Source of the DNA: Gemmatimonadota bacterium
GTDB lineage: Bacteria > Gemmatimonadota > Gemmatimonadetes > Longimicrobiales > Gaopeijiaceae
NCBI GenBank assembly: GCA_039589315.1
Contig: JBDHHQ010000013.1
Location: 147,125-211,124 of the forward strand
DNA length: 64,000 nucleotides
Direction: 5' to 3'
Both the position numbers and the translations under genes were made by a program. Below, piece after piece: positions 2,027 to 29,331 of the stretch. The notes below the pieces were generated by a model that was not told the DNA's origin, made no database searches, and was given only the letters and a program-made list of their open reading frames with translations. Numbering within the stretch: position 1 is the first letter of the stretch; every line of letters starts with the position of its first letter.

Positions 2027-2031
2027 CTCCG

Positions 2032-2952
2032 ATGGTCCCTCGACAGCAGCAGCGCACGCTGGCGCCGGCGTCCCGCTTCCTCGAGCCCGCGATCCTGGCA
2101 CGGATCGACAACCTCGAGCTGCTGGCGCGGACGGTGGTCGACGGGTTTCTCCACGGCCTCCACCAGTCCCCCTACCTCGGGCTGTCCCTGGATTTCGCCG
2201 AGCACCGTGCGTACCAGCCCGGTGACGACATCCGACTCATCGACTGGCGTCTCTTCGCCCGCACGGACCGGCATTTCATCAAGCAATTCGAGGCGGAGAC
2301 CAACGCCAATTTCGTTGTCATTCTAGATATCTCCCGTTCCATGAGCTACGGGAGCCAGGAGATCAGCAAGCTCGACTACGCCAGATATCTGGCGGCTTGT
2401 CTCGCCTACTTCTCGCGCAGCCAGGGAGATCGCGTCGGCATCGTCACCTTCGACAATGAGATTGGTGAATACGTGCCGCCGTCACTCCGCCACCTCGACG
2501 TCCTTCTACACACGCTGGCCCGGGCCCAGGCCGGAGCCCCGGGCAGCCTCGCGCCCCTGCGGCGCATCGGGGAGACCCTGAACCGACGGGGCATCCTGGT
2601 GGTCATCTCGGACCTCTATGAGGAGCCGGAGCGCGTGCTCCGGGCCATGAACGACCTGCGGCACCGGGGCCACGACGTGTTGGTCTTCCACGTGATGGAC
2701 CCGGCGGAACTGACCTTTCCCTTCGACAAGTCTTCGAGCTTCCAGGATCTGGAGACCGGCGAGGAGATCCCCGTCGTTCCGGACAAGCTTCGGGATGAGT
2801 ATCGCTCCCTGATCCGCGGTCACATCGAGGGGCTCGAGCGCATGTTCACGGCCAATCGTATGGACTACGCCCTGCTGGACACCTCCGAGCCCCTCGACCA
2901 CGCGTTGTTCAGATACCTGGCCACGCGGCAGCGGATGAGCAGGACACGCTGA
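2032..2952 (+). CDS. DUF58 domain-containing (vWA-like) protein
   Basis: DFAEHRAYQPGDDIRLIDWRLFAR, MIDAS-like DISRSM, VISDL; directly follows moxR. Confidence 0.92.
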   Translation: MVPRQQQRTLAPASRFLEPAILARIDNLELLARTVVDGFLHGLHQSPYLGLSLDFAEHRAYQPGDDIRLIDWRLFARTDRHFIKQFEAETNANFVVILDISRSMSYGSQEISKLDYARYLAACLAYFSRSQGDRVGIVTFDNEIGEYVPPSLRHLDVLLHTLARAQAGAPGSLAPLRRIGETLNRRGILVVISDLYEEPERVLRAMNDLRHRGHDVLVFHVMDPAELTFPFDKSSSFQDLETGEEIPVVPDKLRDEYRSLIRGHIEGLERMFTANRMDYALLDTSEPLDHALFRYLATRQRMSRTR

Positions 2953-8000: not shown

Positions 8001-8685
8001 GGGCGAGGAGCGTGGCCAGGCGGGACAGGATGGCCAACAGCCGGACGGGCAGCCGGGGGAAGGCCAACAGGGCCAAGGCCAACCAGGCGAAGGCCAACAG
8101 GGTGAGCGCCAGCAGGGCGAGGGCCAACAGGGCGGCGAGCAGGCCGGCGGCCAGCGGCGCCTGGAAGGCAGCGACCAGGCTGGCGGACGCCAAGGACGGG
8201 GCGGACAGCAGGCTCAGGGACAGCCCACGGGCGATCCCTCGGGCGGTCAGCCCGATCAGACCGGCGGGCGCCCCGACGGCGGCGGCCCCCCGCCGCCGGG
8301 CGGTGGGTTTGGCGGTGACCGGCGAGCGGAGCTCTCACCCGATCAGGTCCGACAGTTCCGACGGGAAGCGGGCCGAAGGGAACAGGAGGCCCGGGAGCTC
8401 CGCAACCTGCTGCAGGAAGAGGGCCGAGAGGTCCAGGACCTCGATGACGTGATCGACTCCCTGGAGGCATTGCAACGGACGCGTGTGTACGGCGATCCCG
8501 TGGAGCTGGCCCGCCTCCAGGACGAAGTGATCGAGGGTCTGCGCCGCTTCGAGTTCGCGCTGCGCCGTGAGCTGACCGTTGACGGCGACCGGGTATTCCT
8601 CGGCGGGTCGGACGAAGTGCCCCCCGCCTATCGCGACCTCGTGGAGGAGTACTACCGGGCGCTGTCCCGGGATCCGGGCCGGTAG
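5062..8685 (+). CDS. DUF4175-like membrane protein with Ig-like domains and long Q/G-rich coiled-coil C-terminus
   Basis: Three N-terminal TM helices, PAYTGL, DQPP and ADDDFGV motifs, coiled coil, terminal VPPAYRDLVEEYYRAL; last gene of the moxR operon (alternative start 5077). Confidence 0.75.
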   Translation: MSVRRMNRNGHAQVLRVIRQVRRRWRLRVALRGLAVVLGLGFVAFAASALGMDFFRFTPRAVTGFRVLAYVALVALAVWFLVRPLLRRVTDQQVALYLEEHEPTLEAALLSALELGDGGNAGHPSPELLGRMVQQAVDRCRAVEYGRRVEAHGLQRSTGVLAGLVALVALVVAFGPAPLRNGVSALLFPVRDAAAVNPYSIIVLPGDTTVARNSDQAVLAELHGFESPDVALVTRSTADNTFRRLSMLPADSGRFEILLLDVADETEYYVESSGVRSETFTIEVADLPYVDELKLVYHFPAYTGLEPRTVENGGDIAALAGTRVELHAKPTISTPAGVLWVDEASQELERQEDGSFAGQIVVRQDGYYRIELAGPNGDPVPASPQYTIDVLTDQPPAISFNTPGRDIQASPIDEVLVEARADDDFGVGSLDLIYSVNGEPEDTVNLYRKSGAGLAEVVATHTFFLEEWELEPGDVISYYATVRDNNGGNGEVITSDLYFIQARPFGRDYRQADQAGGPPQGGGGAALEGALSELQRQVIAATFNLIRDRESYDEESFRENLVSVGLAQGRLREQVETLARRMANRGIFETDPRMRDIGEALPLAAEAMKEAEDRLEEQAPKEALGPEQRALQLVLKAEETFERTVGEGQQGGGGGGGAQAEELADLFELELDKLKNQYETVQRGQQQQQDNQLDETLERLKELARRQQQEAERQRRRAAAGQQGGGGGGDSQRALADETEEAARQLERLARETQSQDLMDASRRLQEAADAMRRSAGSQGNASTAEATSALDRLEDAQRRLEEQRDARLRRDVADARQRAEELAREQERMREDVADLQRGGFGGVQQLERLMERKDAMFEEVADLERQLDRAAAEALREDQREAAGKIQEAAGGIRDDKLKEKIRFSKGVAQERDATYADAFEEQIARDIERLGQRLEDAEGAIGSGPRDRMAEALDRTRELVRGMESMEERLRQGAGQQGEERGQAGQDGQQPDGQPGEGQQGQGQPGEGQQGERQQGEGQQGGEQAGGQRRLEGSDQAGGRQGRGGQQAQGQPTGDPSGGQPDQTGGRPDGGGPPPPGGGFGGDRRAELSPDQVRQFRREAGRREQEARELRNLLQEEGREVQDLDDVIDSLEALQRTRVYGDPVELARLQDEVIEGLRRFEFALRRELTVDGDRVFLGGSDEVPPAYRDLVEEYYRALSRDPGR
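8041..8145 (+). repeat. Low-complexity coding repeat, (GEGQQ/GQGQP)n with ~15-nt period
   Basis: ggcgaaggccaacag-like units recur in QPGEGQQGQGQPGEGQQGERQQGEGQQG. Confidence 0.7.
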
Positions 8686-12158: not shown

Positions 12159-13691
12159 CTAACCCTGGGCGGTGGGATCCGGACCCGGCCGGCCGAGCTC
12201 GGCCTCGACGGCTTCACGGATGGGATCCACCGACGTTCCGAATCCGTACACCCGGCCGACTTCCCGCAGCTCTCGATCCAGGATCACCGTGTACGGCAGG
12301 CCCCGGTAGCCGTACCGCTCCTTCAGCTTTCCGCCACCGCGGGCGTTGGGATACCCCACGCCCCCGATCTCCCGCAGGAAGTCCCTGCCCTCGCCCGCTA
12401 CGACGTCCTCGTTCAGGCCGATGACCGAGACCTCGGAAGGGTCCAGGCCGCGGGCCCACGCATCCAGCGCGGGCATCTCCCGACGGCATGGCCCGCACCA
12501 GCTGGCCCAGAAGTTGATCACCACCACCTTGCCCCGGTGATCCGCCAGGCGCAGGACGCCTTCTCCGTCCAGGCTCGGCAGATCGAACGGCGCGAAGGCC
12601 ACCCGGTCCGGCGCAGCCGTCCGGGACAGCACCTCACTGGGCTCCAGGCTGTAGACGTGGCCCGAAGGAGACGCGAAGATCGCCGCACCGGGCTCCACCG
12701 CACCCGTTCGCAACAGCTCCCCCGTGGGCTCGAACACCAGCAGCACGTCCGCCCGGCCCAGAGCGGGCTCCGAGGCTGCCAGCACGTAGATCAAACCATC
12801 CGGACCTACCACGACCCCGTACTGGACGATCTCGAACTCCGGCGTGACTTGCCCCTCCACTGCCTTCAGGCGCGGCACGGCCGGTGGCGTCAGGGGAAGC
12901 CAGCTACTCCGCCATGTCGGGTCCCCGTCGGCGTCGAACCGGTGAAGCTCGGGCCGCAGTGCCGAGGCGTACAACACGGTCCCGCCGTCCCCGATGGTGG
13001 CCCAACCGGCGTTGGCCAGGTGGCCCAGGAATGGCGTTGGTGGAGTCGCCACGCGCCCCACTGGTCTCGGCTGATCACCGTCGTGTAGCCAGAGCAACGG
13101 ATCTCGCTTTCGCACCGGGCCCATGTTGAACTCCAGCACGGTGCGGGTGGCGACGCCCAGGCCATGGGCCCCGGCGGTCACCGGGCCGGGGAGCCCCGAT
13201 TCCGTCCAATGGTCCGGCAGGCCGTTCAGGAAGACGAGCGCGGAGCCGTCGGGCTCGACGGCCGACACGCTGCCATCCGCCCCGACCACCACGAATGCGG
13301 GCCGTGCCAGGTGCCGACCGTCTTCCGGCGCTCCCTGGAGGATTCCGCTGACGTAGCCCCGGTCGTCCAGGAGCAGAACCCGGCCCCCCTGCGTGTCCGG
13401 CCAGGCGGAGCCGCCGTCCCTCAGACCGGCAGCCGCTCGACCGTCCATGAACAGCAGGCGCGCCGGGGTCTCCGGCGCCTGTCGGTAGATGCGCAGTCGC
13501 TCCGCTGCGGAGCGGTTGGTCACGACCGTCGTCCCGTCCCGCTGCCCGACCTCGGGCGGCGTGAACGCCTCGGCCGCGTCCGCCACGGGGCCCGGCCCGC
13601 CGTCGGAGCACGCCGCCAGGAGCAGCAGCGCGAGAAGGCCGGGGCCGAAGCCCCAGCCTTCCCGGTTCGGTCTGAGTGACCGGATCATCAT
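12159..13691 (-). CDS. Lipoprotein: beta-propeller-like N-terminus fused to TlpA/ResA-type thioredoxin
   Basis: Lipobox LAAC; C-terminal [21 protein letters not shown] and GLPYT cis-Pro motif. Confidence 0.8.
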
Positions 13692-13698
13692 CTTCCGC

Positions 13699-14085
13699 CT
13701 ACATTTCCACGCTCTCGATGATAATCGTGTGCATGCCGCCACGCTCGATGGCCTTGCCCTTGACGGTCACCGCGTGCTCGGCGTGGGGCCTGAGCCGCTC
13801 GTTGTCGCCGGCGCCGGGCATGGCCTGGCTGACAGGCAGGTACAGGGTGCCGTCCTCGGCCATCAGGCCGAGCGGCACACCGCGATCGGCGCACACCTGG
13901 GCGCACTCGCGGTGCATGTCCCCCTCCAGGCCGTACACGACCTTGCAGGACAAGTCCACGACGTGGGCCGTGAACTCCACGTCCTCGCCCTCTGCCATCT
14001 CGGGCATCATGTCCTGGGCTGAGGCGGGAACGGCGCTCAGGGCCACGAAGGCCAGCGCCAGGAAGCTCAGTGAGAGTTTCCGCAT
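13699..14085 (-). CDS. Small exported protein with three Cys (DLSC...HRECAQVC), probable OB-fold
   Basis: GGAGG RBS, Sec signal ending ASA-Q, Met-rich mature N-terminus, VTVKGK beta motif. Confidence 0.75.
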
Positions 14086-14206
14086 TGGATCACCTCCAAC
14101 GACTCGTGATGAAGTCCGGCGCCGAGCCTCGTGCCCGGGCGCCAAAGTCAGGTCACCGGCGCGTTGCGCCACTTCGTGCGCGGTCCCGCTGCCTGATTGC
14201 GACCTG

Positions 14207-14872
14207 CTACCGCGGGCCATGGCCCCCATGAGAACCGGGATCGACCAACCCGTCGGAGGCGGTCGTTCCGGAGTGATCTCCGGGTGACGCATGGTGCCGG
14301 TGCTCGTCCTCGCTACCGGCATCCGACGGCTCGTCCCCCCCGGGGTTCCGGTGATCGTGCTGGGGGCCCGCTTCAGTGGATGGAGCTCCACCGTGGTGCT
14401 CATGGCCCGTGGATCCCTCCGGTGCCGCTACGTCCAACTCGAACACGGCCGCGTCCGCACCGTAGTCGAGGTTCACGTAAAGCTCCCAGAGGCCCTCCAT
14501 GGGGATGTCCACCACTGCCCGGTAGTGGGCTACGCTCGACGCCTCGGTCTCGTAGCGCACGATGCCATGCATGGGCATCTCGGGTGAGACCAGGTCCAGC
14601 GACAGTGGCAAAACGTCTGGGGGGGCTTCGCCGAGGGCGATCTCGAGCCGGACCGGACCGGGCCGGAGGGGAAGAGGATCCGCGGAGACGCTGACCTCGA
14701 CGCCCGAGGTGGACGCCGCCGTCCACGCGTCCCCGCTTGCCAAGTCGGGGGCCGGGGCCTGGTCTCCCTCGGACAGAACCTCGTCCGCTACCCCCGATGT
14801 ACATGCCACGCCCACGAGGACCAGCACGGCCCCGGTCATCAGCTTCGAGTTCGTTCGCCCGGTCTTGTTCAT
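14207..14872 (-). CDS. YtkA/FixH-like lipoprotein with His-rich C-terminal tail
   Basis: Lipobox GVAC, PEMPMHG and PMEGLW motifs, tail with 11 His. Confidence 0.7.
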   Translation of the reverse strand: MNKTGRTNSKLMTGAVLVLVGVACTSGVADEVLSEGDQAPAPDLASGDAWTAASTSGVEVSVSADPLPLRPGPVRLEIALGEAPPDVLPLSLDLVSPEMPMHGIVRYETEASSVAHYRAVVDIPMEGLWELYVNLDYGADAAVFELDVAAPEGSTGHEHHGGAPSTEAGPQHDHRNPGGDEPSDAGSEDEHRHHASPGDHSGTTASDGLVDPGSHGGHGPR

Positions 14873-15130: not shown

Positions 15131-16180
15131 TCAGCGGTCGTGGGAGTCGTCCGCATACACCCTGTCGGGGTCGAGCACGACCCGATAGCGAACGAGTGCG
15201 CCCACGGGAGGTGCTGGGTGGGGCGCGCGAACCTCCAGCGTGCCCGCCGGCGTGCCGATGGCCGCGACGGCGCCGGCCGACCCGTGGGTCACGGCGGTCA
15301 CCACGCCGGAGTAGGGGCCCTCATCGACCGCGATCACGCCCGACAGGCCCAGCACGGCCACCGCGCCACCGGCGCGCACCCGGACGGGTAACGGAAGGCG
15401 CCCGAGAGCGCAGTTGAACGAGCCGGCCTCCACGTGACCCGTCACCTCGTTCCCGAGACCCAGAAAGCGGGCGACCCGAAGAGACCCCGGCCGACTGAAG
15501 AGCTCGTCGGGACCTGCGACCTGCACGAAGCGGCCGTCGATCAACACGGCGATGCGGTCCCCGAGCCGGCCGGCCTCCTCCAGGTCGTGCGTGACCAGGA
15601 CGATGGCCGGCCGGTACGCCTGCCGCGTCGCCCTGATGCTCTCGCGGACCTCGCCGCGGAGCGACGGATCGAGCGAGGAGAGCGGCTCGTCGAGAAGGAG
15701 CAGCGCGGGTCGGGCCACGACCGCCCGGGCCAGGGCGACGCGGTGGAGCTGGCCCCCGCTGAGGGTGCCGGGCCTCCGGCCCTCCATGCCGGACAGTCGC
15801 ACGGCCGCCAACGCCTGCAGCACCCGCGGCAAACGGTCGTGGTGCGGGACGCCCCGCACCCGAAGCGGGAAGGCCACGTTCTCTCCGACGGTCATGTGGG
15901 GGAACAGCACGGGAGACTGGTGGAGGTAGACGGCATTCCTTCGCTCGGTGGGCTCGCCCGTCACGTCGCGCCCGTCGATCTCCACCGTTCCCGCCTGGAC
16001 TGGGGCCAGGCCGGCCAAGGCCCGAAGCAGCGTGGACTTGCCCGCCCCGGAGGTTCCCACGACCACCAGGAGCTCCTCCGCGACCACGTTGAACGAGATG
16101 TCCTGCAAGCCGGCCTCGGCGCCGAAGTCCGCTCGGAGTCGGTCCACCGTCAGGACCGCGGCCGCCTCTCCCGGGCTCAC
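15131..16180 (-). CDS. ABC transporter ATP-binding protein (PotA/FbpC/YnjD-like)
   Basis: Walker A GTSGAGKST, LSGGQ signature, LLLDEP, VTHD; GTGA overlap with upstream permease. Confidence 0.92.
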   Translation of the reverse strand: MSPGEAAAVLTVDRLRADFGAEAGLQDISFNVVAEELLVVVGTSGAGKSTLLRALAGLAPVQAGTVEIDGRDVTGEPTERRNAVYLHQSPVLFPHMTVGENVAFPLRVRGVPHHDRLPRVLQALAAVRLSGMEGRRPGTLSGGQLHRVALARAVVARPALLLLDEPLSSLDPSLRGEVRESIRATRQAYRPAIVLVTHDLEEAGRLGDRIAVLIDGRFVQVAGPDELFSRPGSLRVARFLGLGNEVTGHVEAGSFNCALGRLPLPVRVRAGGAVAVLGLSGVIAVDEGPYSGVVTAVTHGSAGAVAAIGTPAGTLEVRAPHPAPPVGALVRYRVVLDPDRVYADDSHDR

Positions 16181-17034
16181 AGCGCCAGGGCCTGGGTCCG
16201 CCGAATGGCCAGGCCCACGAGACCCAGAGCCAGGATTCCAGGGAGGGTGAGAAGGACGGCCCCGGTGGCCGCCAGTGCGTCCTGTCCGGCGCTCATGTAG
16301 GAGAAGACCTCCAGCGGTAATGTCGGAACGGCGCCCTGACCGACCAGCACCGTCAGCGGGACCTGGGCCCAGGAGACCAGGAAGCCCAGCAGGAACGCCT
16401 CCATCAGGGGCCGACGCAGGAGGGGTAGCGTGATCCGCGCGAGGACCTGGACCCGTGTCGCGCCCAGCGTCCGGGCGCATTCTTCCACGCTGTCGTCGAA
16501 CGCGGTGAAGATCCCCAGGAAGAAGAGGGCCGTGTAGCCCGTGGCGGGGATCAGGTGCGCCAGCAGCACCCCCACGAGGGTGCCGCCCAGTCCGAAGGCC
16601 AGAAAGGAGAACTGGAGACCCACCGCGAGGGCCACGGGCGGTGCCGCCACCGGGAGAAAAGCCGCCCCTGCTCCGAGGGCCCGGCGCCAACCCCGGAGTC
16701 GGGCCAGGGCGCGGCCGACGGGCATGCCTAGCGCGGCGGAACCCACACCCGTGGAGACGGCCAGGACGACGCTCGTCGCGCTGGCTCTCGCGAGTCGGCC
16801 CGCGGCACGGAACACCTCGCGCCACGCCTCCATCGTGAGCTCCGTCGGGAGCAGATCCGGATAGAACCACCCGCGACTCACCGACCCCATGGCCAGCAGC
16901 GCCAGGGGCCCGACCGCCGACAGGGTCAGGCCCACGATCAGGATACCGCGCATCGCCGCCAGGAGCGGATTCGCCAGCACCAGCGGTTGCGAGGGGCCCG
17001 AGGTCGCCCGTCCCGGGCTGGCCGCGGCCCTCAC
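16177..17034 (-). CDS. ABC transporter permease (YnjC C-half-like)
   Basis: Multiple TM helices, WFYPDLLP, EAA-type loop EECARTLGA. Confidence 0.88.
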   Translation of the reverse strand: MRAAASPGRATSGPSQPLVLANPLLAAMRGILIVGLTLSAVGPLALLAMGSVSRGWFYPDLLPTELTMEAWREVFRAAGRLARASATSVVLAVSTGVGSAALGMPVGRALARLRGWRRALGAGAAFLPVAAPPVALAVGLQFSFLAFGLGGTLVGVLLAHLIPATGYTALFFLGIFTAFDDSVEECARTLGATRVQVLARITLPLLRRPLMEAFLLGFLVSWAQVPLTVLVGQGAVPTLPLEVFSYMSAGQDALAATGAVLLTLPGILALGLVGLAIRRTQALAL

Positions 17035-17921
17035 GAGTGCCCCTCGGGCCCGCGAGCCCGCACCGCCTCGTGAGCCACCACGGCCAGGGCCGCCAACCCC
17101 ACGCCCAGGAGCACGAGTACGTAGGCGTCGCCCCGCTGCGCCAGGGCGCTGGCCGTGTACCGCTCCATCGTGAGCAACGGCAGCGCCAGGGGGTCGGACG
17201 GCGCCATGAGCGCCGTCGCCTCATACGTTCCGGCGACGAACGCGAACACGGCGACGACACCGGGGAGCATTCCCCTCAGGAGCAGGGGCAAGGTGACCCA
17301 CCGCAGCACGTCCAGGCGTCGGGCGCCGAGGCTCCGGGCGGCCTCCTCGAGGGCCGGGCCCCGGGCGGCGAGGACGGAGAAGGCCACCAACCCCAGAAAC
17401 GGGAGCTCCTTCCACGTGAGTGTCAGGATCAGTCCCCAGCCGGCCGTATCGTACACGAGCGCTGGCATGTCTCCCGGCGAAGCGATCCAGCCCAGAGCGT
17501 GGGCGCCCCGGGCGAGGAGGCCGCTCTGGCCCAGAACCAGCACGCCGCCCACGGCAGCCGCGATATGGGGGATGGGCAGCGGCAGGATGGTCAGCGCCCG
17601 GGCCCAACGGTCGCCGCGCCCCCAGCCCCGGAACGAGACCGCCACGACCACGGCCCCGGTGGTCGCGAGGAAGGTCGACGCCGCCGCGACCCAGAGCGAC
17701 CATCCAGCCCCCGCCCAAACCGCGCCCTCCGAGAGCACCCTCCAGACCCGTGACGCTCCGGCGGACCCGGCACCGGGCCCTACGAACCCGACGGCGCCGG
17801 CGGCGGCGTAGGCCACGCCGACCAGGACCGGGGCGGCGACTGCCAGGGCCGCCAGCAGGCCCCACGTGGCTTCGCGCCCGGCAGGCACTCCGCGGCGGCG
17901 TCCCTCGGGCGACTCGCTCAT
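17031..17921 (-). CDS. ABC transporter permease (YnjC N-half-like)
   Basis: PLPIPH and WKELPF motifs, EEAARSLGA loop; ATGA overlap with the binding protein gene. Confidence 0.88.
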   Translation of the reverse strand: MSESPEGRRRGVPAGREATWGLLAALAVAAPVLVGVAYAAAGAVGFVGPGAGSAGASRVWRVLSEGAVWAGAGWSLWVAAASTFLATTGAVVVAVSFRGWGRGDRWARALTILPLPIPHIAAAVGGVLVLGQSGLLARGAHALGWIASPGDMPALVYDTAGWGLILTLTWKELPFLGLVAFSVLAARGPALEEAARSLGARRLDVLRWVTLPLLLRGMLPGVVAVFAFVAGTYEATALMAPSDPLALPLLTMERYTASALAQRGDAYVLVLLGVGLAALAVVAHEAVRARGPEGHS

Positions 17922-19165
17922 CTACCCACGGGCCGGATCCGCCGCCGCCAGTCCTCCGCGAGCCGTTCATGGTATTCGGGCGCGACCTCGGGGAGGGCGT
18001 AGCGCTGGAGCGAGTCCGCGGGGAGCGCCCTGGGGTCCTGCTCGAGAGCCTGGAAGCGGCGGCGCCATGGCTCGGGGAGGCGGGCCGGGTCCAACACCGT
18101 TCCGTCGCCCCAGACCCCCGGCTCGGCCTTCTCGAGCTGCGCCTCGGGCGACAAGAGGAAGTCGGCCACCACCATGGCGCCCTGGGGATTGGGGGCGTTG
18201 AAGGGAATCCCCAAGTAGTGGGCATTGGCGATCGTACCCTCCCTGAGCAGCAGTGGGCGCGCCGTCTCCGGAAACAGCCCTTGCCGGACCTTCGTGGTCA
18301 CCTCGTTGTGGTTGTTGGACATCGTGAAATCCACCTCGCCGTTCGCGAACAGGCGGTGCAGCTCGGCCACGCCACCCGGGTAGGCCCTTCCCCCGCGCCA
18401 GAAGCTGTCCCGGCGGGCCTCGAGCCACTCCAGGGTACGGTCCCGTCCCCGCAGGTACGCCACGTCGTCGAAGCCGCCCTCGAACGCCTCGACACCCCCG
18501 GACAGCGCGTACATGAGGATCTTGAGAAACGTGACGCCGGTGAACGACTGGTCGTGGCTGAAGCGCCCCGGGTGCTCGTCGATCCACTGCGCCAGCTCCG
18601 CCACCGTGCCAGGAGGATCCGGCGTGCGCGCCTCGTCGTAGATCAGCGCGAACTGGACGCGTCCCCACGGTGACTCGAATCCCTCGGGATCCTGCTCGAA
18701 GTCGCGCATGACGATGGCGGAGGCGCTGTCCACATAGGCCGCCGCCGGAATCCTCTCAGCCCACGGACCCCACAGCAGCCCCTCCTGACGGAGATTGTGG
18801 AAGGTCTCTCCGTTGATCCACACCAGATCGGCCCGGCCACGCGCCCCCGCCTCCCGCTCGACCACCAGTTGATTCACCACCTCGGGGCCCCGCCCGTCCA
18901 CGACCCTCAGTCTCAGGTCGTAACGCTCCTCGAGCCTCGGCGCCACCCAGTTCTCCACGTAGGTGTTGATGGCGGGGTCGCCCCGCCACATCCGCCATGT
19001 CACCTCGCTTCCGCGGGCAGCGGCGACGATCTCGGGCCAGGGCAGCGACGCCACCTCTCCGGGGGCGGGCGGAGTGTCGTCGCGGCAAGCCGTGAGGGTC
19101 GTCAGCGCCGCGATCAGCAGAAGCACCCGAGCGCAGATCCCGTTGGCGCCGTCAGGCTGTCGCAT
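17918..19165 (-). CDS. ABC transporter substrate-binding lipoprotein, YnjB-like
   Basis: Lipobox LTAC; DLVWINGETF, ESPWGRVQF, FTGVTFLK, GTIANAHYLGIPFNA, DFLLSPEAQ, WGDGTVLD are YnjB-family-like motifs (alternative start 19315). Confidence 0.85.
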   Translation of the reverse strand: MRQPDGANGICARVLLLIAALTTLTACRDDTPPAPGEVASLPWPEIVAAARGSEVTWRMWRGDPAINTYVENWVAPRLEERYDLRLRVVDGRGPEVVNQLVVEREAGARGRADLVWINGETFHNLRQEGLLWGPWAERIPAAAYVDSASAIVMRDFEQDPEGFESPWGRVQFALIYDEARTPDPPGTVAELAQWIDEHPGRFSHDQSFTGVTFLKILMYALSGGVEAFEGGFDDVAYLRGRDRTLEWLEARRDSFWRGGRAYPGGVAELHRLFANGEVDFTMSNNHNEVTTKVRQGLFPETARPLLLREGTIANAHYLGIPFNAPNPQGAMVVADFLLSPEAQLEKAEPGVWGDGTVLDPARLPEPWRRRFQALEQDPRALPADSLQRYALPEVAPEYHERLAEDWRRRIRPVGR

Positions 19166-19331
19166 GGCCCGTCGATTGGGGTGGCCGGCCCGGCCCGAGG
19201 CGGAGAAGGCAGGAAGGTCCCTCCATCGCCCGAGGCCGGGGGGGGCAGGGCCGGCCCACGCTACTGCCGCGAGGGTGCGGTGGGCGGATCCACTGGTCCC
19301 CTCGAGCCTGGTCATCGCCCGCGGGGGGCGT

Positions 19332-22166
19332 TCAGAACGCGTACCGCACCGAAAGCTGGACCTGACGCGGAGGCGCCGCTGTCGTGTAGGCGATGGGGTC
19401 ACCGGGCCGCCCGACCTGGGTCCTGGGCCCACCTCCGGGTATCCCGTTGGCGAAGCCCGTGTAGTTGGTCGCATCGAAGACGTTGAAGACGTCCGCTCGG
19501 AGCTCGAGCAGTGTCTCCCCGAGAAAGAGACGATAGGCCCCGGTGAGGTTGAGGAGAAAGGCCTGGGGAAGGCGCTCCTCGTTACGCGCCACGCCCGAGA
19601 ACCGATCGTGGTTGCCCACGAAGCCGTTGCCGAAGATCGGACCCGATCCGTCCAGATCCCGGAAATGGGCGACCCGGTTGATTGGCGTCCCGGTCTGGAA
19701 GTCGGCAATGCCACCCAGTGTGACGTTGGGGGTCGGGCTCCAGAGCCCACGAACGGTCACATGGTGTCGGCGGTCGTTGATGGCGTGGGCCCACTCGTCG
19801 TCGAACTCGTTGCCTTCGAAGGCCTGGAAGTTGATGTCCTCCGTATCGGTCTTCGTGCTGGACAAGATCCAGTTCGCCTCGAGCGTCACCTCGTCGGCCA
19901 CCCGGCCTCGCGCCATGACGTAGAGCCCCAGGTACCGGGCCCGGCCGCCGGAATCGGTGGTCGTCAGGCGCCGGAAGCCGCCCGGCTCGGGGGTGACGGG
20001 TCGGTACTGGTCCCCGAACTCGGCTGGGCGATCCACGGTGTCGGCCGGCGTGAGCCGACGCTGGATGGCGTTAAGGTCCAATGAGCGTGGGAGGTTCCAG
20101 GTTTCGGACCAGACGCCATCCACCGCCACGGCCCATGTGTCGCCGAGCTGTCGCTGGAAGCCCGCGGTGGCCTGGCTCGACATGGGCTGCTCGAGGCCGT
20201 TGGCGAACATGACGCGCATCTCCCGAGGCGGAAGCTCGTCTTGCAGGCCTTCGAGATCCTCGGCCGTCGGCCCCTGCAGGAAGGGTGGCGGCGGGAAGAC
20301 CTTTCCCTCGAAGGTCACCACCGCATTCCCGTCTGGGCCGAACTGGACCGCGTCGGAGTACACGGCGTACGGGAACTTCCCCGCGTAGAGTCCCCATCCT
20401 CCCCTCAGCACCGTGTTCGGGGTGGCGTACCAGTTGGCCGAGACCCTGGGCTGGAAGTTGTCGAGGTCGGGGCGGCTCTGGCCTCGGGACGTGATGTCGT
20501 CGTAGTCCCACCGGACGCCGCCCTGGATCGTCAGAGACGGAGACACCCGCCAGACGTCCTCCACGAACGCGCCCACCAACGTCTGGGTCAGGTCTACCTG
20601 CTGGGGGTTCGCATCGATGGTGTAGCTCGACACCCGGACGTCCACGGGGATGTCGGTGATCGACAGGAATTCGCCCGACGCTTCGATGTTGCCCTCGTTC
20701 ACCACCGTGTAGGCCCCCGTGGGGTTGGTGGACGACCCTGTGAGCTCGAACCCCGAGGACACGACGTCGGCACCCAGCCGGAGCGTGTGATCCCGACCGA
20801 TGCGACTCTCCAGCACGTCCTTGAGCTGTAGCTGCACCTCGGTCTCGTCGAAGATGAAGTTGCTCGATCCCACCACCGCCTCCACCGTCGTCTCGTCCTG
20901 CGCCACGACGGTGGTCTGCGGCGTCTGGAAGTCGCTGGCCGACGGTGGAAAGAACCAGCGGAAGGTGCCCAGCTGCACCGACAGCTCGTTGCCTGCCCTC
21001 CCGGCACGGAAGGCGGATCGGTGGGTGAGGCTGGTCAGGCTGCCGATCCGCCGGGTGGTGATGTCGGCCTCCGGCACCACCACGCCCGACCCCTGACCCT
21101 CGCGGCTCACGTCACTCAGAGCGAAGCGAAGCGTGGTGGCCTGGGACTCGCTCCAGATCTGGTCCACGCGCAGGAATGCCTTCCAGGTCCGACGCAGCTC
21201 CGTCCCCAGGAACTGGGTGCGGGCCGTTGACCCGATCCGATCCTCCTTCTCGTCGCCGAATTCCAGCGCCGCGAACAGGTAGGTGCGATCCCTGACCAAG
21301 GGCCCACTGATGGCACCGCCCAGCTGCGTTCGCTCGAAGCCCTCGGGATCGGTCCCGGCCGGTGCGAACTCGGGCTCCGAGTCCAGCGGAATGCCGGGAC
21401 GGCGGAATAGGAATGCCTCGCCCGACCACCGCTCTCCCCCCGCGAGCGTCTCCACGTTCACGACGCCGTTGGAGCTGCGTCCGTAGGCCGGGCGATACGA
21501 GTTGGCCATGAGTGCGAGGCGTCGCATCCCGGCCAGTGGGATGTCCACGCGCGGCCCACCGAGGAACCCTTCGTTGTTGTCCAGACCGTCGACCAGGTAC
21601 TGGGTGTAGAGAGAGTTGGCCCCGTTCACGGTCAGGACCGGGGCGTCTCCGAAGAATCCGGTGGACTGGGAGACACCGGGGAGGTTGTAGGCCAGCGCCC
21701 ACGGGTTCCGTGAATCCGTGGGAAGCCCCGCCAGCTCCGTCTCTTCCAGTGTACCGCCCGTCGCGGCGTCCTCGGTGTTCAGCAGTGGCCGCTCCCGACG
21801 GCCCGTCACCGTCACCGCATCCAGCGTGTAGAGCTTCGCCAGCGTGACCGCCATCTCCTGTCGCTGACCGGCAACCTGAGGCGGCACGGCAGCCTCCTCG
21901 GGGAGGAACCCCGGCGCGCTGAAGGTGACGACACCGCCTTCCCCGGCGGGAACCACCAACACGAACCGGCCGGAGCCGTCGGTGATCGTCTCGTGGGCGC
22001 CCGGATCGAACGCGACGCGCACACCTTCGAGCGCGATTCCGACCTGGGTGCGCACTAGACCGACCAGCTGGGCGCGGTCCTGTGCCTGCAACACCGCAGG
22101 CCATGACAGGGCCATTCCTACCGACAGGGCAGCGACGACTCGGCGGCGTGACATCGGGGTCGGCAT
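19332..22166 (-). CDS. TonB-dependent receptor with N-terminal carboxypeptidase-regulatory-like domain
   Basis: Signal peptide, plug YLVDGLDNN/AYGRSSNGVVN, barrel motifs GVRWDY and NFQPR, C-terminal PRQVQLSVRYAF. Confidence 0.92.
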   Translation of the reverse strand: MPTPMSRRRVVAALSVGMALSWPAVLQAQDRAQLVGLVRTQVGIALEGVRVAFDPGAHETITDGSGRFVLVVPAGEGGVVTFSAPGFLPEEAAVPPQVAGQRQEMAVTLAKLYTLDAVTVTGRRERPLLNTEDAATGGTLEETELAGLPTDSRNPWALAYNLPGVSQSTGFFGDAPVLTVNGANSLYTQYLVDGLDNNEGFLGGPRVDIPLAGMRRLALMANSYRPAYGRSSNGVVNVETLAGGERWSGEAFLFRRPGIPLDSEPEFAPAGTDPEGFERTQLGGAISGPLVRDRTYLFAALEFGDEKEDRIGSTARTQFLGTELRRTWKAFLRVDQIWSESQATTLRFALSDVSREGQGSGVVVPEADITTRRIGSLTSLTHRSAFRAGRAGNELSVQLGTFRWFFPPSASDFQTPQTTVVAQDETTVEAVVGSSNFIFDETEVQLQLKDVLESRIGRDHTLRLGADVVSSGFELTGSSTNPTGAYTVVNEGNIEASGEFLSITDIPVDVRVSSYTIDANPQQVDLTQTLVGAFVEDVWRVSPSLTIQGGVRWDYDDITSRGQSRPDLDNFQPRVSANWYATPNTVLRGGWGLYAGKFPYAVYSDAVQFGPDGNAVVTFEGKVFPPPPFLQGPTAEDLEGLQDELPPREMRVMFANGLEQPMSSQATAGFQRQLGDTWAVAVDGVWSETWNLPRSLDLNAIQRRLTPADTVDRPAEFGDQYRPVTPEPGGFRRLTTTDSGGRARYLGLYVMARGRVADEVTLEANWILSSTKTDTEDINFQAFEGNEFDDEWAHAINDRRHHVTVRGLWSPTPNVTLGGIADFQTGTPINRVAHFRDLDGSGPIFGNGFVGNHDRFSGVARNEERLPQAFLLNLTGAYRLFLGETLLELRADVFNVFDATNYTGFANGIPGGGPRTQVGRPGDPIAYTTAAPPRQVQLSVRYAF

Positions 22167-22324
22167 GCTCCGGGAGATAGCGGCGGGTCTTCGGCATCAC
22201 AATGCCCGCTCTCGGCCTCCCGGTTCCCGACCGCGCCCGAAGCGAGGGTCGTTGCGACGCCTGGCGCGGTTGAGGATGTTCGAGCCATGTCACGGACTCC
22301 TTCGACCGTGGGACGGCAGCGGCG

Positions 22325-23626
22325 ATGACGGCCCTGGCTGGCCTTGACGTGGGCACGACCGCGGTGAAAGCCGCCGTGTTCGACGGGGACGGGCGCGTGC
22401 TGCGATCGGCACGGCGGCTACTTCCCCGCCTCGAGATCCGTGGGCCGCGGGCGTGGCAAGACCTCGATGGGGTCATCGCGGCCGTGGAGGCGGCTCTCGA
22501 GGACGTCCGCCGCCAGGGACCGATCGATCGCGTGTGCCTGGCGACCCAGCGCGACACGGTCGTTCTGGTCGACGATGCCGGCGCTGCGCTCACCCCGCTG
22601 GTGTCGTGGCGCGACCGGCGTGATCTGGTCCACGGCTCCCTCTGGGACGCTTTTGCCGAAGAGGGAGACGTGCTTCGCGGGGCGGGGAGCGTCCGCTCTC
22701 TCGCCTCCCACCTGACCTCGCGGTGGGTCGGGCGGGCGGTAGAGGCAGCGGGCACTGTGCCTCGCCACCTGTGGGGATCGGCGCTCGATCGAGTTCGGGC
22801 CGTCGGACCGCTTGCCCTGGCGCACCCCGAAGTGGTTCCCGTGGGAAGCGCGGTGGGTGCGGTGACCGGCTCGGTGCTGCACGTGTGCGGTGGCGACAAG
22901 AACTGCGAGCTACTGGGAAGCGGGGTGACGTCGGCCGGAAAGGGGGCGCTCTCCCTGGGATCCGCCATCGGCCTGGGAATGCTGGCTGATGGTTCGACGG
23001 ACCCACCGGCCGGCGTGGTGCTCACCCACGCTTCGATTCCTGGGCGCTGGAACGTGGAGACCGGCCTGGCCGGCGGCCTGGAGGGTGAGCGGTTCCTACG
23101 GGACCTGGCTCCTGTGCTCCCACCGCTCGCAAGTCAATTCGTCCTTGCGGGGATGATCGCCCCGTACTTCGCTGGGGCCCTCGACGCACCTGAGGCACTC
23201 CCGCTCTGCGACGGTATCGGCGACTCGACCCCTCCCGAAGTCGTGCACCAGGCCTGGACTCAGGGGGTGCTGTGCGAGCTGCGCCGTCTTCGCCCAGCGC
23301 TCGAGACCGCGGCCGGGAGCCCACTCGAGGACCTCGTCGTCACAGGCGGGCGGGCGGCGGACGCCGCCTGGGTTCAGTTGGCAGCCGACGCGCTGCAGCT
23401 CCCCACCCGACCGCTGGCGGATCCATGGGCGGGCGCCCGTGGCGCCGTCGCGGCCGCCCTGACGGCGGAACCCCCAGAGCGGTCGGAAGCATTCCTTCGA
23501 CGTGGGGCCGCGCTGGCCGAACCCTGTCGTCCCGACCCCCGACGTGCCGATGATGTGGCCCGCTACTACGATCGGTGGATGGCCCTGAGCGACGTAGCCC
23601 GCAGTCGGAGCGGACAGCACCCATGA
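22325..23626 (+). CDS. FGGY-family carbohydrate kinase (divergent)
   Basis: GLDVGTTAVKA phosphate-1 motif, ATQRDT, SWRDRR, GGD, VTGG. Confidence 0.85.
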   Translation: MTALAGLDVGTTAVKAAVFDGDGRVLRSARRLLPRLEIRGPRAWQDLDGVIAAVEAALEDVRRQGPIDRVCLATQRDTVVLVDDAGAALTPLVSWRDRRDLVHGSLWDAFAEEGDVLRGAGSVRSLASHLTSRWVGRAVEAAGTVPRHLWGSALDRVRAVGPLALAHPEVVPVGSAVGAVTGSVLHVCGGDKNCELLGSGVTSAGKGALSLGSAIGLGMLADGSTDPPAGVVLTHASIPGRWNVETGLAGGLEGERFLRDLAPVLPPLASQFVLAGMIAPYFAGALDAPEALPLCDGIGDSTPPEVVHQAWTQGVLCELRRLRPALETAAGSPLEDLVVTGGRAADAAWVQLAADALQLPTRPLADPWAGARGAVAAALTAEPPERSEAFLRRGAALAEPCRPDPRRADDVARYYDRWMALSDVARSRSGQHP

Positions 23627-24504
23627 AGCCGGTTCAGATCACGCGTCGCCCCCATGATCCCCTCGACGATCCGCCGGGCGCCCCACGACTACCCGAGATC
23701 CTGTTGTACCCGGGCAACCGCTGCAATCGGGATTGTCACTTCTGTTGCGTCGACGGGAGCCCCGGCGGCTCCTTCGCTCCGTTCGCCCTGGACGCGCCGG
23801 AGCGGCTCGTGCAGTTGATACAGCCGGGAGCTCGAATCAAGCTCTACGGCGGAGAGCCCACCCTGCATCACCGGTACTTCACCGGCTTCATCCGCGACCT
23901 TCGGCGCCTGGGATATGTCGGGCGCCTGACGGTGTTCAGCAACGGCGTCCAGTCGCAGCGGCTCATTCATATGTTGGAGGCCGACCCACCCGCCGATCAC
24001 CACCGCGGCACCGACGCGTACCTGAACCACTACGTCTGGCATGGAGACGGCGTCGAGCCGATACCACCCGGTCGTCGGGCCGAGCTGCAAGCCTGGGGCA
24101 CCGCCAACCCCGGCCGGCTCTGGCTGGGGCACGAGGACGTGCTCCAGGTGGGAGGCGCGGCCCGTCACACGTCCGACGACGTCGCTGGTCGGCCCGACTT
24201 TCGAGGGCGGTGCGCTCGTTGTCACCCCACCATGAAGAGCGACGGACGGATCCACGCGTGCGCCTTCGCGGTTGAGGTGGAGGCGGCCCAGTACGATCTC
24301 GGTACGATCGCGCAGTCGCCCTGGCAGCTGCGAGCCCGTCGCCAGCGCTTCCTCAGGTGGGTCGACGAGGTCTTGGAGCCTGCGGCCGCGGACCGCGAAG
24401 AGCACCCGTGCGTAACCTGCCTCCGGTGGGCGCGGGCGGAGACCGAAGGCGGGACCGCACGAACGCTCCCGGTGCTCCGACCGGAGCTGGTGCCAGCTCC
24501 TTAG
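23623..24504 (+). CDS. Radical SAM enzyme with Cys-rich (twitch/SPASM-like) C-terminus
   Basis: CNRDCHFC (CxxxCxxC), GGEP, FSNG; C-terminal CARC...DGRIHAC...CVTC; ATGA overlap with the kinase. Confidence 0.88.
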   Translation: MKPVQITRRPHDPLDDPPGAPRLPEILLYPGNRCNRDCHFCCVDGSPGGSFAPFALDAPERLVQLIQPGARIKLYGGEPTLHHRYFTGFIRDLRRLGYVGRLTVFSNGVQSQRLIHMLEADPPADHHRGTDAYLNHYVWHGDGVEPIPPGRRAELQAWGTANPGRLWLGHEDVLQVGGAARHTSDDVAGRPDFRGRCARCHPTMKSDGRIHACAFAVEVEAAQYDLGTIAQSPWQLRARRQRFLRWVDEVLEPAAADREEHPCVTCLRWARAETEGGTARTLPVLRPELVPAP

Positions 24505-24607
24505 ACGGCGCGTCGGACCCACGTGTGCCGAGGCCCTGACCCTCGCCGCCTCGCCGCGCTGGTTGGGGGCCTACCACTCCCGCGAGCTGCCGCGTCGCGA
24601 GGCTACA

Positions 24608-25219
24608 CTAGAGGTAGCGTACCGCCCAGACAATCCTCTGGAGCGTGCTCAGCCCCACGAGGAGGGCCAGCACCGTGAACAACGGGATCAGCCGGTCCGG
24701 AAAGAGCAGGAACAGGCCGTAGAACACCATGGTCTCGGTACCTCCGACGATCCCGGCCGGCATGGAGACGGTTGTCTGCTCGGCCCGCTCCCGCGCGCCC
24801 CGGTTCCGCTTCTCCAGGATGGCCGAGAGCACCGTCCAGCTCGCCGCGTTCACGTAGAACGTGGCCAGCATGACGGCCAGGGTCAGGTACAGCAGCTCGG
24901 ACGCGGGCCGGGAGAGCACCAGGCCCAGCGGCACCAGCGCGTACACGAGGAAATCCAACACCAGGTCCAGGTAGCCGCCCAGGTCACTCTGTGTCCCGTG
25001 GACTCGGGCGGTCACGCCATCCAACCCGTCGAGGAACCGGTTCCCCACCCAAGCGAGCAGAGCCCAGCCATAGGCCTGTCGGAGGCACAGGACGAAGACC
25101 GCGCCCCCCAGCATCAGGGCGAGGAGCGTGATGAGGTGGGGATGCACGCCGGGCCCCAGCGCCCTGGCGGCCGGGGCGAGCAGACGGTCCTTGAAACCGC
25201 GCAGAGCGTCGTCCAGCAT
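24608..25219 (-). CDS. CDP-alcohol phosphatidyltransferase, YnjF-like
   Basis: Signature DGLDGVTAR...[13 protein letters not shown] motif; several TM helices. Confidence 0.9.
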
Positions 25220-27644: not shown

Positions 27645-27928
27645 TCCTCCTCCTTCTGACCCGGGATCTGTTCCACGGCCGCCCCACCACCAGACCTCGA
27701 TTGTCCTGACCGGTCTTCCTACCCGCAAGTCACATTGGGGGCCCAGCCTCCGTCATCGCCAGAGCTACCTGGGCGGGAGCGCGCTGCAGCCGCCCGGCCG
27801 GCGGAGTTCGCCGGTGGCCGGCCTCGATTGCCGGGCCTGCAAGGATCCCGGTGCGTGGGTCCCGGGTAGGGCATCTCGGTGACCACGGGGTCACCGCTCG
27901 ATTCTGCAACCTCAACCGGTGGAAGCCA

Positions 27929-28342
27929 ATGCGTTGTTCGGCTCGCGTGTTCGGTCTCGGCAGCCTCGCGATCGTCGTGGGATCCGTCTCCGGCGTGGTG
28001 GCGGCCTCGGAGACGGGTCTGCACCTGGCTCTGGAGAAGTCGTCTCCGGCCGAGGATGCAGTCCTCGACAGCGCGCCAACAGAGATCCGCCTGTTCTTTT
28101 CCCAGGAGCCACAGGCCGCAGGGACCTCTCTGCGCCTCATGGCCGCCGACTCGACCCGCGTCTCCACCGGCGACCCAGAGCCCTCGGCGGACGACACCGC
28201 GGTCTTCTCGGCTCCAGTGACCGGCGCGATGCCCGACGGGTCGTACACGGTCGTCTGGCGCGCGATGGCGAAGGACGGACACGTGGTTCGAGGCGAGTTC
28301 TCCTTCACGCTCGTTGCGGCCGACGGCGCCCCGGACCGCTGA
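27929..28342 (+). CDS. copC: Copper resistance protein CopC
   Basis: Signal peptide, HLALEKSSP, YTVVWRAMAKDGHVVRGEFSF. Confidence 0.88.
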   Translation: MRCSARVFGLGSLAIVVGSVSGVVAASETGLHLALEKSSPAEDAVLDSAPTEIRLFFSQEPQAAGTSLRLMAADSTRVSTGDPEPSADDTAVFSAPVTGAMPDGSYTVVWRAMAKDGHVVRGEFSFTLVAADGAPDR

Positions 28343-28398
28343 CCGGCGCCGGGCCGATGGCGCGTCATCCCGGCGCCTCCTCTCTGCGGGCTTGAGGC

Positions 28399-29331
28399 GT
28401 GGCCACGGACTCCCCTCTGGCACTGATCGGCCGGTGGCTCCTCTTCTCGGGCACCCTTGCCTGGGTCGGAGCCGGGACCGTCCGGTGGGGACTGCTCCCC
28501 GTGTGGTCCCGCGGCGCTGGATCCCCCGAGCCCCTTCGGGGCGCGCTGACCCGTGGGGCGGCTCGCGCCGGCGTCCTGGGCGGCCTCTTCCTGCTGGCCG
28601 GAGTCGTGTCCCGGCTGCAGACGCAGGTCGCCGACTTCGTCGACCCCTTCGACCCCGCCGGCCCTCAGGTCCGCCTGCTACTGACGGCCACCCTGTGGGG
28701 CAAGGTGTGGATCACGCAGGCCCTGCTCACCGCGGTCGGCCTGGTGGCCTTTGTGGCCGTGTTGGCGGGGCGGGGAAGGGTCGGGTGGGGTGCGGCTGGT
28801 GTGGCCGCCGTGGGGGTGGGTGCGATGCCGGCCCTCTCGGGGCACGCCGTCGGCAGCGAGAGCCTCACTACGCTCGCCGTGCTGGCCGACGTGCTTCACG
28901 TGCTGGCGGCGGGCGCCTGGATCGGGGGGCTGCTCGTCGTGGTAGCCGCGGTGGCATCCGGCCGAGCTTGGCGTGCGGACCCCGCCGGTCGAGCTCAGGT
29001 AGCCCGGCTGATCGGCCTGTTCTCGCCCATGGCGCTGGCGGCCGCGGCAGCGATCGTGGTCACCGGCCTGTTCGCCACCTGGCTCCACCTGTCCAGCGTG
29101 GAGGCCTTCCTGGGCACGGGGTACGGACTCGCCGTCCGCCGGAAGCTCATGCTCGTGGCCCTCGTGTTGGGGGCGGGCGCCTACAACTGGCGGCGCGTGA
29201 AGCCCAGGCTCGCGGACCCCGGGGGGCCCGACCGGTTGCTGCGGTCGGCGATCCTGGAGCTGATCCTGGCGGGGCTAGTGCTGCTGGCCACTTCGGTGCT
29301 GGTGGTGACTCCGCCTGCCATGGACATGTGA
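28399..29331 (+). CDS. copD: Copper resistance membrane protein CopD
   Basis: SGHA, HVLAAGAWIGGL, FS...VTG, YG..KL motifs; follows copC. Confidence 0.88.
   Translation: MATDSPLALIGRWLLFSGTLAWVGAGTVRWGLLPVWSRGAGSPEPLRGALTRGAARAGVLGGLFLLAGVVSRLQTQVADFVDPFDPAGPQVRLLLTATLWGKVWITQALLTAVGLVAFVAVLAGRGRVGWGAAGVAAVGVGAMPALSGHAVGSESLTTLAVLADVLHVLAAGAWIGGLLVVVAAVASGRAWRADPAGRAQVARLIGLFSPMALAAAAAIVVTGLFATWLHLSSVEAFLGTGYGLAVRRKLMLVALVLGAGAYNWRRVKPRLADPGGPDRLLRSAILELILAGLVLLATSVLVVTPPAMDM

Follow-up and report, generated by a model that had tools for sequence, protein, structure and literature searches.

A conserved Ynj-type import locus with a separable kinase–radical SAM branch in a Gemmatimonadota bacterium

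The DNA analyzed here, referred to below as the window, is a stretch of 64,000 nucleotides (nt) from a Gemmatimonadota bacterium (assembly GCA_039589315.1, contig JBDHHQ010000013.1, positions 147,125–211,124). A locus within it, at 15131–25219, raises the question of which compound is imported and what is then made of it. It encodes a TonB-dependent outer-membrane receptor, a Ynj-type ATP-binding cassette (ABC) importer, an FGGY-family kinase, a radical S-adenosylmethionine (SAM) protein and a cytidine diphosphate (CDP)-alcohol phosphotransferase, and all eight genes were confirmed to be intact at their coordinates. We found that the locus is a real, conserved and uncharacterized variant of the Escherichia coli ydjX–ynjF module with a separable radical SAM accessory branch. 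Gene identities, intact motifs, co-distribution, the interchangeability of the kinases and the separability of the modules were established directly.

The importer and its CDP-alcohol phosphotransferase

The substrate-binding lipoprotein (17918–19165, minus strand; lipobox LTAC) belongs to the YnjB family (PRK11622). It shares 35% identity with E. coli YnjB and scored 395.6 bits against NF008633, the only NCBIfam model it matched (cut-off 203). Two permease genes follow on the same strand, at 17031–17921 and 16177–17034, both with PF00528 and the EAA-loop motif; they correspond to the N-terminal half of YnjC (residues 60–262 aligned, 28%) and to its C-terminal half (residues 349–492 aligned, 30%), respectively. 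The last gene of the run encodes a YnjD-like ATPase of PotA-type length (15131–16180, minus strand; PF00005; Walker A, LSGGQ and Walker B; 35% identical to YnjD). No PDB sequence relative of the binding protein was found at E ≤ 0.001, and the ESM Atlas returned only generic clusters for it and for the radical SAM protein. Polyamine (PotA/PotC), thiamine (ThiP/ThiQ), aminoethylphosphonate (PhnT/U/V) and ferric importers were considered and rejected, the components falling far below the equivalog cut-offs.

The receptor gene (19332–22166, minus strand; 944 aa; CarboxypepD_reg, Plug and PF25183 barrel) heads the run. The order receptor, lipoprotein, two permeases and ATPase, with the ABC genes coupled by 4-nt overlaps, was described in the initial annotation and holds: the overlaps are ATGA between binding protein and permease 1, and GTGA both between the permeases and between permease 2 and the ATPase. 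We infer GTG starts for permease 2 and the ATPase; for the former, alternative starts lie at 16980 or 16953 instead of the GTG at 17034. The receptor and binding-protein genes do not overlap, the likely ATG of the latter being 166 nt away and another in-frame ATG lying 16 nt past the receptor stop.

The locus is closed, as first annotated, by a YnjF-type CDP-alcohol phosphotransferase gene (24608–25219, minus strand; PF01066 with the full CDP-alcohol motif; 35% identical to YnjF). The genome has five PF01066 genes in all. This one converges on the radical SAM gene across 103 nt and has its own ribosome-binding site, GGAGGAG; given this site, its strand and its convergent orientation, it forms a third transcription unit. 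Its distribution was read from 301 genomes sampled evenly across the phylum (tallies include the unpublished genome G157), 11 of which have YnjB. A profile of the transferase gave matches at E < 1e-80 in 10/11 YnjB genomes vs. 0/290 others; 8 of the 10 positive genomes sat in the query alignment, while G288 and the 290 negatives did not. Three weaker matches, near 1e-37, fall in phylum genomes without YnjB. The receptor adjoins YnjB in 9/10 of the other phylum loci, with 52–66% identity, and the transferase lies near it in 8/10 (up to 20 kb away). The exceptions are L182, whose YnjB is more distant and which has neither partner, and L184, where the transferase is encoded elsewhere in the genome. 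Further afield, receptor orthologs are 61% identical in locus L082 and 31% in Chondrinema.

A plasmid survey gave a similar picture. Among 76 records with a YnjB-like gene, 15 neighborhoods from several phyla were read; in these incomplete gene tables a CDP-alcohol transferase was annotated in 10/15 and a radical SAM protein in 1/15 (Chondrinema). Two of the 15 (Marinovum and Microbulbifer) are weak matches and may represent another subfamily. Together, these distributions support the assignment of the CDP-alcohol transferase to the Ynj system. Other partners recurring near YnjB in the phylum were a MerA-like flavoprotein (7/10), TVP38/DedA proteins (5/10), split AhpD-like genes (3/10) and DUF547 (1/10).

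Several other Ynj loci were of interest in themselves. A TVP38–flavoprotein–ynjBCD–ynjF cassette (L202, CP063738.1, and equal-score matches) moves with large plasmids found in Klebsiella, Salmonella, E. coli, Citrobacter and Providencia; cattle or milk was the source of many. In Deinococcus taeanensis (L198:9048–9935) the Ynj operon contains a lysophospholipid acyltransferase gene and has no annotated CDP-alcohol transferase; here a second lipid enzyme occupies the transferase slot. The complete Egbenema chromosome (G308, L010:8705–9905) carries a YnjB gene in two pieces, seemingly split by a frameshift. Chondrinema litorale, a tractable species cultured from a red alga, encodes DUF2064, a TonB receptor, YnjBCCD and a radical SAM protein in one neighborhood (L197:7990–16440, NZ_CP111049.1). 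That radical SAM protein is of a different family from the one in the window, the hidden Markov model match (E 3e-6) covering only the cluster motif; a search without a positive control did not find its type in the window's genome or in four relatives.

In E. coli K-12 the corresponding genes, ydjXYZ–ynjABCD, ynjE and ynjF (b1750–b1758), are annotated as putative, and ydjXYZ–ynjABCD have been described as FNR-activated predicted proteins (PMC3688515). Both systems share YnjB, YnjD and YnjF, each at the 35% identity given above, which confirms the Ynj identity proposed initially, as well as a YnjC-type permease and a convergent transferase gene. The window differs by the added TonB receptor, FGGY kinase and radical SAM protein and by the division of YnjC into two genes. 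Its DedA/TVP38 and AhpD-like partners are encoded elsewhere in the genome, and no tblastn match to ydjY or ynjA was obtained at 1e-6.

The kinase and the radical SAM protein

The kinase gene (22325–23626) and the radical SAM gene (23623–24504) lie on the plus strand, divergent from the importer run and 158 nt from the receptor start. They are coupled by ATGA, just as the initial annotation had it. The radical SAM protein reaches no NCBIfam cut-off, and no named model covers its family, which is small and tight: one search retrieved 34 proteins, and another, over 1.84 billion representatives, 31 clusters at E ≤ 1e-30. Eight cysteines are invariant in 161/161 sequences, the scan patterns having included Cys213 and not the seven others. 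Three of the eight form the CX3CX2C motif, and the C-terminal ones are at positions 197, 200, 213, 263 and 266; a GGE motif is present.

An AlphaFold2 model of the protein (mean predicted local distance difference test, pLDDT, 89.8) had its best fold match in EpeE (YydG; Z 15.6), followed by anSME, CteB, BtrN (Z 12.4) and SpeY (Z 11.9). On this modeled fold, together with CX3CX2C, GGE and the C-terminal cysteines, we assign it to the SPASM/twitch subclass. With EpeE, BtrN, SpeY and BlsE it shares a partial barrel and a C-terminal Cys-rich domain; it differs from them by an identity of only 13–18%, by its cysteine spacing (CxxC-x12-C … CxxC) and by frequent fusion of the family to DUF547. No RRE domain or precursor peptide was seen with it. 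The five C-terminal cysteines would fit one auxiliary iron-sulfur cluster plus a hydrogen donor, since an extra conserved cysteine is described as donating hydrogen in some radical SAM epimerases (PMC8326336). The protein was also considered as ArsS and rejected, as it gave no TIGR04167 match at E ≤ 0.001 (cut-off 300 bits).

To follow the family, we took the top 80 of the 177 loci in genomes and the top 80 of the 261 in metagenomes, and searched 50 carrier genomes drawn from the former. As the heuristic gene caller misses or shortens some genes, the window kinase included, marker counts were made by tblastn, with backgrounds computed for the 301 phylum genomes and for 180 other cyanobacterial genomes (many of them small). 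From the quick tree of the family, which carried long-branch warnings, only clades with 99–100 support were used. Within the 301 phylum genomes a single-protein search found the radical SAM protein only in the genome of the window, and none was found in the plasmids searched. DUF547 is fused or adjacent to it in 123/160 loci; a further five are truncated by the end of a contig, and L114 falls in with them. The remaining 31/160 lie outside this set and are the informative ones. The 123 loci (L004–L161, e.g., L088:9263–10801) represent a DUF547–radical SAM fusion clade in Binatota, Acidobacteriota and other lineages, in which DUF547 has a conserved CxxxxC motif.

The kinase (PF00370/PF02782) likewise falls in a small and distinct subfamily, with 13 relatives at E ≤ 1e-10, and is about 50–70 aa shorter than the solved glycerol and xylulose kinases. 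Its DVGTT, TQRDT and GGDKN motifs are conserved, and the phosphate loop and catalytic Asp are present; TQRDT resembles the glycerol-kinase substrate motif. The AlphaFold2 model (pLDDT 91.3) superimposes on gluconate, xylulose and glycerol kinases with template modeling (TM) scores of 0.72–0.84. With these enzymes the protein shares the fold (TM about 0.8), DxGTT and the conserved Asp in GGDKN, yet only 14–20% identity. Assignment to a named subfamily was rejected, all scores being far below cut-off (XylB 64 vs. 380, GntK 33 vs. 649 and GlpK 29 vs. 590 bits). The subfamily was not found in genomes G288, G057, G098 and G302, and G103 gave one weak N-terminal match, probably to an ordinary FGGY kinase.

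Is this pair linked to the importer in other genomes, as the initial annotation predicted? Neighborhood comparison bore this out, and the refuting condition set there, a lack of such co-occurrence, does not hold. The FGGY kinase precedes the radical SAM gene in L002, L082, L083, L084 and (in a cut locus) L085. In L082 the receptor, YnjB, permeases, ATPase, kinase and radical SAM genes follow one another on one strand behind an ArsR-family gene, and L083 has the order ATPase–kinase–radical SAM. A cyanobacterial clade has its own arrangement, namely a kinase of the aminoglycoside phosphotransferase (APH) fold, two YnjC-type permeases, ATPase, YnjB and radical SAM. YnjB is present in 16/17 of these loci and the APH-fold kinase in 11/17, the other six ending before that position. 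As YnjB occurs in 0/180 other sampled cyanobacterial genomes, the link is specific, although the carriers are kin and do not count as independent cases. This kinase was rejected as MtnK (no match at E ≤ 1e-5).

Elsewhere in the family the importer itself is exchanged. PhnD/PhnE and a phosphate-type porin replace YnjBCD in L078, where the kinase and radical SAM genes are kept, and in L068 and L072 a different ABC importer is present and the radical SAM gene directly follows a split phosphoenolpyruvate (PEP)-synthase-like phosphotransferase. Six loci (L077, L089, L097, L100, L103 and L122) show no kinase/importer pattern; a galK–galT pair before the radical SAM gene in L103 was set aside, as three sister loci lack it. 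We concluded that the kinase–radical SAM accessory is tied to the Ynj importer beyond chance. As three unrelated phosphotransferase types (FGGY, APH-fold and PEP-synthase-like) fill one position, these gene orders also suggest that the radical SAM protein acts on a phosphorylated substrate.

The route and the ligand

The initial annotation placed all these proteins in a single chain of import, phosphorylation, radical modification and incorporation into a lipid. The distribution of the two modules does not agree with this. In the ten other YnjB genomes of the phylum the importer and mostly also YnjF are present, while the radical SAM protein was found in 0/10 anywhere and the window-type kinase in 0/10 nearby. 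Conversely, the cyanobacterial clade combines importer, kinase and radical SAM protein, and a profile of nine YnjF-type sequences, which divergent YnjF proteins could escape, detected a YnjF-type gene in 0/16 of its carrier genomes, one of which is a complete chromosome. Over the 50 carriers this profile gave strong matches in G301, G336 and G343 and ten weaker ones near 1e-20. Both modules occur together in the window and in G301, where the parts are spread over three contigs. A branch fits these data better than a line, because each downstream module occurs with the importer in the absence of the other, and we regard a branched two-module architecture as probable.

For the function as a whole we put forward, tentatively and as somewhat short of an even chance, the scavenging of an arsenosugar or a close 5-substituted ribose analogue, with two fates. 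The receptor and YnjBCCD would import one scarce hydroxyl-bearing sugar, most likely an organoarsenic riboside or a 5-substituted ribose analogue. In the core fate, judging by the enzyme family, the YnjF-type enzyme would move phosphatidyl from CDP-diacylglycerol to a free hydroxyl of the sugar, giving a phospholipid. With a glycerol arsenoriboside the product would be an arsenosugar phospholipid and no kinase would be needed. Arsenoriboside phospholipids have a glycerol–phosphate–diacylglycerol linkage. Phospholipids containing arsenoriboside are known compounds (PMC11009773). In the accessory fate the FGGY kinase would phosphorylate the imported sugar, and the twitch radical SAM protein would abstract a hydrogen from the sugar phosphate, leading to oxidation or epimerization. 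Of the five C-terminal cysteines, four would ligate an auxiliary iron-sulfur cluster and one could give back a hydrogen. The product would feed the TIGR04282, TIGR04283 and DUF547 enzymes, whose genes lie on other contigs.

The genes around the radical SAM family make arsenic appear the best lead for the ligand. Locus L003, in the same radical SAM clade as the window (Shimodaira–Hasegawa-like approximate likelihood ratio 99 in the quick tree), has the order ArsS, ArsM-like, radical SAM protein of the window's family, ABC importer and a phosphoesterase–ArsM fusion; ArsN2-like, ArsC-like and MIP channel genes adjoin this run. Its ArsS reached 421 bits (cut-off 300), and the ArsM, ArsC and MIP matches were below their cut-offs. 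An ArsN2 gene lies directly after the radical SAM gene in L068 (GTGA-coupled) and L072, at 122.5 and 126.4 bits vs. a cut-off of 125, and TIGR04283 is found 311 nt downstream of it in L045. In 18 loci of the DUF547-fused clade, the named ones from Binataceae or related lineages, a TIGR04282–04283 fusion is encoded on the opposite strand at a distance of about 1.4 kb; TIGR04283 and TIGR04282 were each detected in 44/50 carrier genomes. Among Ynj operons, a DUF2064 gene heads the receptor–Ynj operon of Chondrinema, and DUF547 is found inside that of Pseudoalteromonas.

L003, together with L218 (JBBRQH010000081.1), represents a Chthoniobacterales arsenic island that also holds two PhnS-like binding proteins, a metallophosphoesterase and a SigZ-type sigma factor.

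In the genome of the window, arsM, arsS, TIGR04282 and TIGR04283 are absent from the locus, and TIGR04282, TIGR04283 and ArsM-like domains are encoded elsewhere. Contig C31 carries, directly after a TIGR04283 gene, an 825-aa protein in which an N-terminal domain is joined to a radical SAM/SPASM domain and to an ArsM-like methyltransferase domain (G000:C31 14065–16539; L162:8066–10540). This fusion reaches no named family cut-off and, with this query, had no counterpart in 50 other genomes; it is a possible ArsS substitute. On contig C30 (L163:5622–9192), downstream of recA on the other strand, a MerA-like flavoprotein, a TVP38–DUF547 fusion and TIGR04282 form one tightly packed run, whose members are the best matches in the genome to the usual Ynj partners. 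With the known arsenosugar set (ArsM, ArsS TIGR04167, TIGR04169, TIGR04282, TIGR04283) the locus and its relatives share neighborhoods and the DUF547, TVP38, AhpD-like and rhodanese partners. They differ in that the radical SAM protein is not ArsS and none of the set lies in the window. Scavenging would be expected to leave an importer that lacks the genes for synthesis, which may be the case here. ArsS is described as adenosylating dimethylarsinous acid, DMA(III), to 5′-deoxydimethylarsinoyladenosine, DDMAA (PMC13598754), and a passage on human toxicokinetics states that the mechanisms of arsenosugar uptake are largely unknown (PMC12608789). Our literature search returned no importer or lipid synthase for arsenosugars.

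A number of results weigh against an arsenical ligand. TIGR04283 is not enriched with the importer, being present in 2/11 YnjB genomes of the phylum vs. 101/290 others (Fisher p 0.34; 103/301 in total), and because about one third of the phylum has it, the 44/50 figure for carriers loses weight. Likewise, ArsS in 13/16 cyanobacterial carriers means little against a background of 67/180. ArsS was found in 0/29 genomes of the DUF547-fused clade and, above cut-off, not in the window's genome; ArsM was found in 0/5 single-chromosome Thermoanaerobaculia carriers and in 2/4 other fused-clade genomes tested (E ≤ 1e-30). The metagenome-assembled genome G301, the closest one with both modules, has neither TIGR04282 nor TIGR04283. 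The arsenic-rich neighborhoods stem from few independent lineages, the radical SAM fold indicates no reaction, and the "arsenosugar" label of TIGR04282/04283 in NCBIfam is annotation only. Neither arsS nor arsM was annotated in any of the 15 plasmid neighborhoods. The proposed link between ynj and arsenosugar genes is supported, then, by the radical SAM neighborhoods (L003, L068, L072) and is weak where the transporter is concerned (0/15 plasmid loci; 2/11 genomes with TIGR04283).

Sulfur and selenium neighbors (rhodaneses, ynjE, SoxYZ in L082 and a TIGR03169 oxidoreductase) are equally frequent around the core, and EgtB/EgtD lie near it in L180 (in L186 by sequence likeness). This leads to the first alternative, which keeps the branched design but takes as ligand a 5-modified riboside or heteroatom sugar that is free of arsenic, of the methylthio-, seleno-, 5-deoxy- or phosphono-ribose type. 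We consider it possible, if on the unlikely side. The arsenic genes nearby would share tailoring enzymes with such a ligand. It would agree with the recurrence near the core of these sulfur-related genes, of AhpD-like genes and of a SelD-associated oxidoreductase, with the carriers that lack both ArsS and ArsM, and with the PhnD/PhnE or PhnS-like importers that replace YnjBCD in L078 and L003. A distant YnjB-like operon of Marinovum (weak, E 6e-32) additionally has a nucleoside ribohydrolase, an isomerase, a kinase and an aldolase. However, an arsenic-free ligand leaves unexplained why the radical SAM gene sits in an arsS–arsM–arsN2–arsC island and is coupled to arsN2.

A linear route is improbable also if the ligand is a polyol or cyclitol that is imported, phosphorylated, oxidized or epimerized and then phosphatidylated as in phosphatidylinositol-phosphate (PIP) synthesis. 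The best NCBIfam matches of the transferase are archaetidylinositol-phosphate, DIPP and PIP synthases, and the fold neighbors BtrN and SpeY are twitch-class dehydrogenases, the substrates of which we take to be cyclitols; the window and G301 do hold all the parts. Yet the modules separate (0/10 and 0/16, as described above), and the window has three transcription units. Identification of the transferase with one of those synthases was rejected, since all scores were far below cut-off (NF040950 60.7 vs. 180, NF045883 30.1 vs. 170, NF041135 39.9 vs. 580).

We judge it quite improbable that the radical SAM protein is a second ArsS-like enzyme. In that case the locus would build the sugar and not salvage it, the 5′-deoxyadenosyl radical being added to a trivalent arsenical, or to a different lone-pair donor, after import. 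The fused clade has TIGR04282 and TIGR04283 in 26/29 genomes each and ArsS in none, and the radical SAM–ArsM fusion, the other candidate in the window's genome, was not found there with this query. Against this, true ArsS accompanies the protein in L003 and in the 13/16 cyanobacterial carriers, ArsM is missing from the five Thermoanaerobaculia carriers, TIGR04167 is unmatched, and the upstream kinase points to a sugar substrate.

That the pair stands beside the importer by chance is very improbable: it is divergent in the window, does not share a contig with the importer in G301, and belongs to a family whose large DUF547-fused clade lacks YnjB (0/29 genomes), but the single operon of L082 and the independent cyanobacterial linkage against the 0/180 background speak against coincidence.

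Surroundings and meaning of the locus

The G+C content of the locus (0.68–0.73) matches its surroundings, and the closest named homologs of its proteins are from Gemmatimonadota. Promoter, terminator and repeat scans of the locus gave nothing convincing or above chance. Downstream of the ATPase, at 12159–14872, lie three minus-strand genes not seen beside homologous loci. One is a His-rich lipoprotein-like open reading frame without a family; the others encode an exported protein, small and CxxC/Met-rich, and a thioredoxin fusion of the TlpA type. Genes that look like CopC/CopD occupy 27851–29331. At 959–8685 the translations look like a run of a MoxR-type ATPase, DUF58-like, BatA-like and long coiled-coil genes.

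Our literature search returned no paper listed as assigning a function to ynjB or ynjF or as describing the radical SAM family. The window joins this importer to soluble enzymes, a kinase and a radical SAM protein, whose substrates are directly screenable, and the replacement of the kinase across phyla narrows the substrate to something that needs phosphorylation. With few members, strict conservation and no named model, the radical SAM family is one in which new radical chemistry may be found, under any ligand. In the boldest form of the arsenosugar reading, which we regard as rather doubtful, receptor–YnjBCD would be the missing bacterial arsenosugar importer, YnjF (that of E. coli included) an arsenosugar-phospholipid synthase, and the radical SAM protein, with its three kinase types, a remodeler of arsenoribose phosphate. 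If true, the arsenic cycle would have an arm devoted to scavenging that spans at least six phyla.

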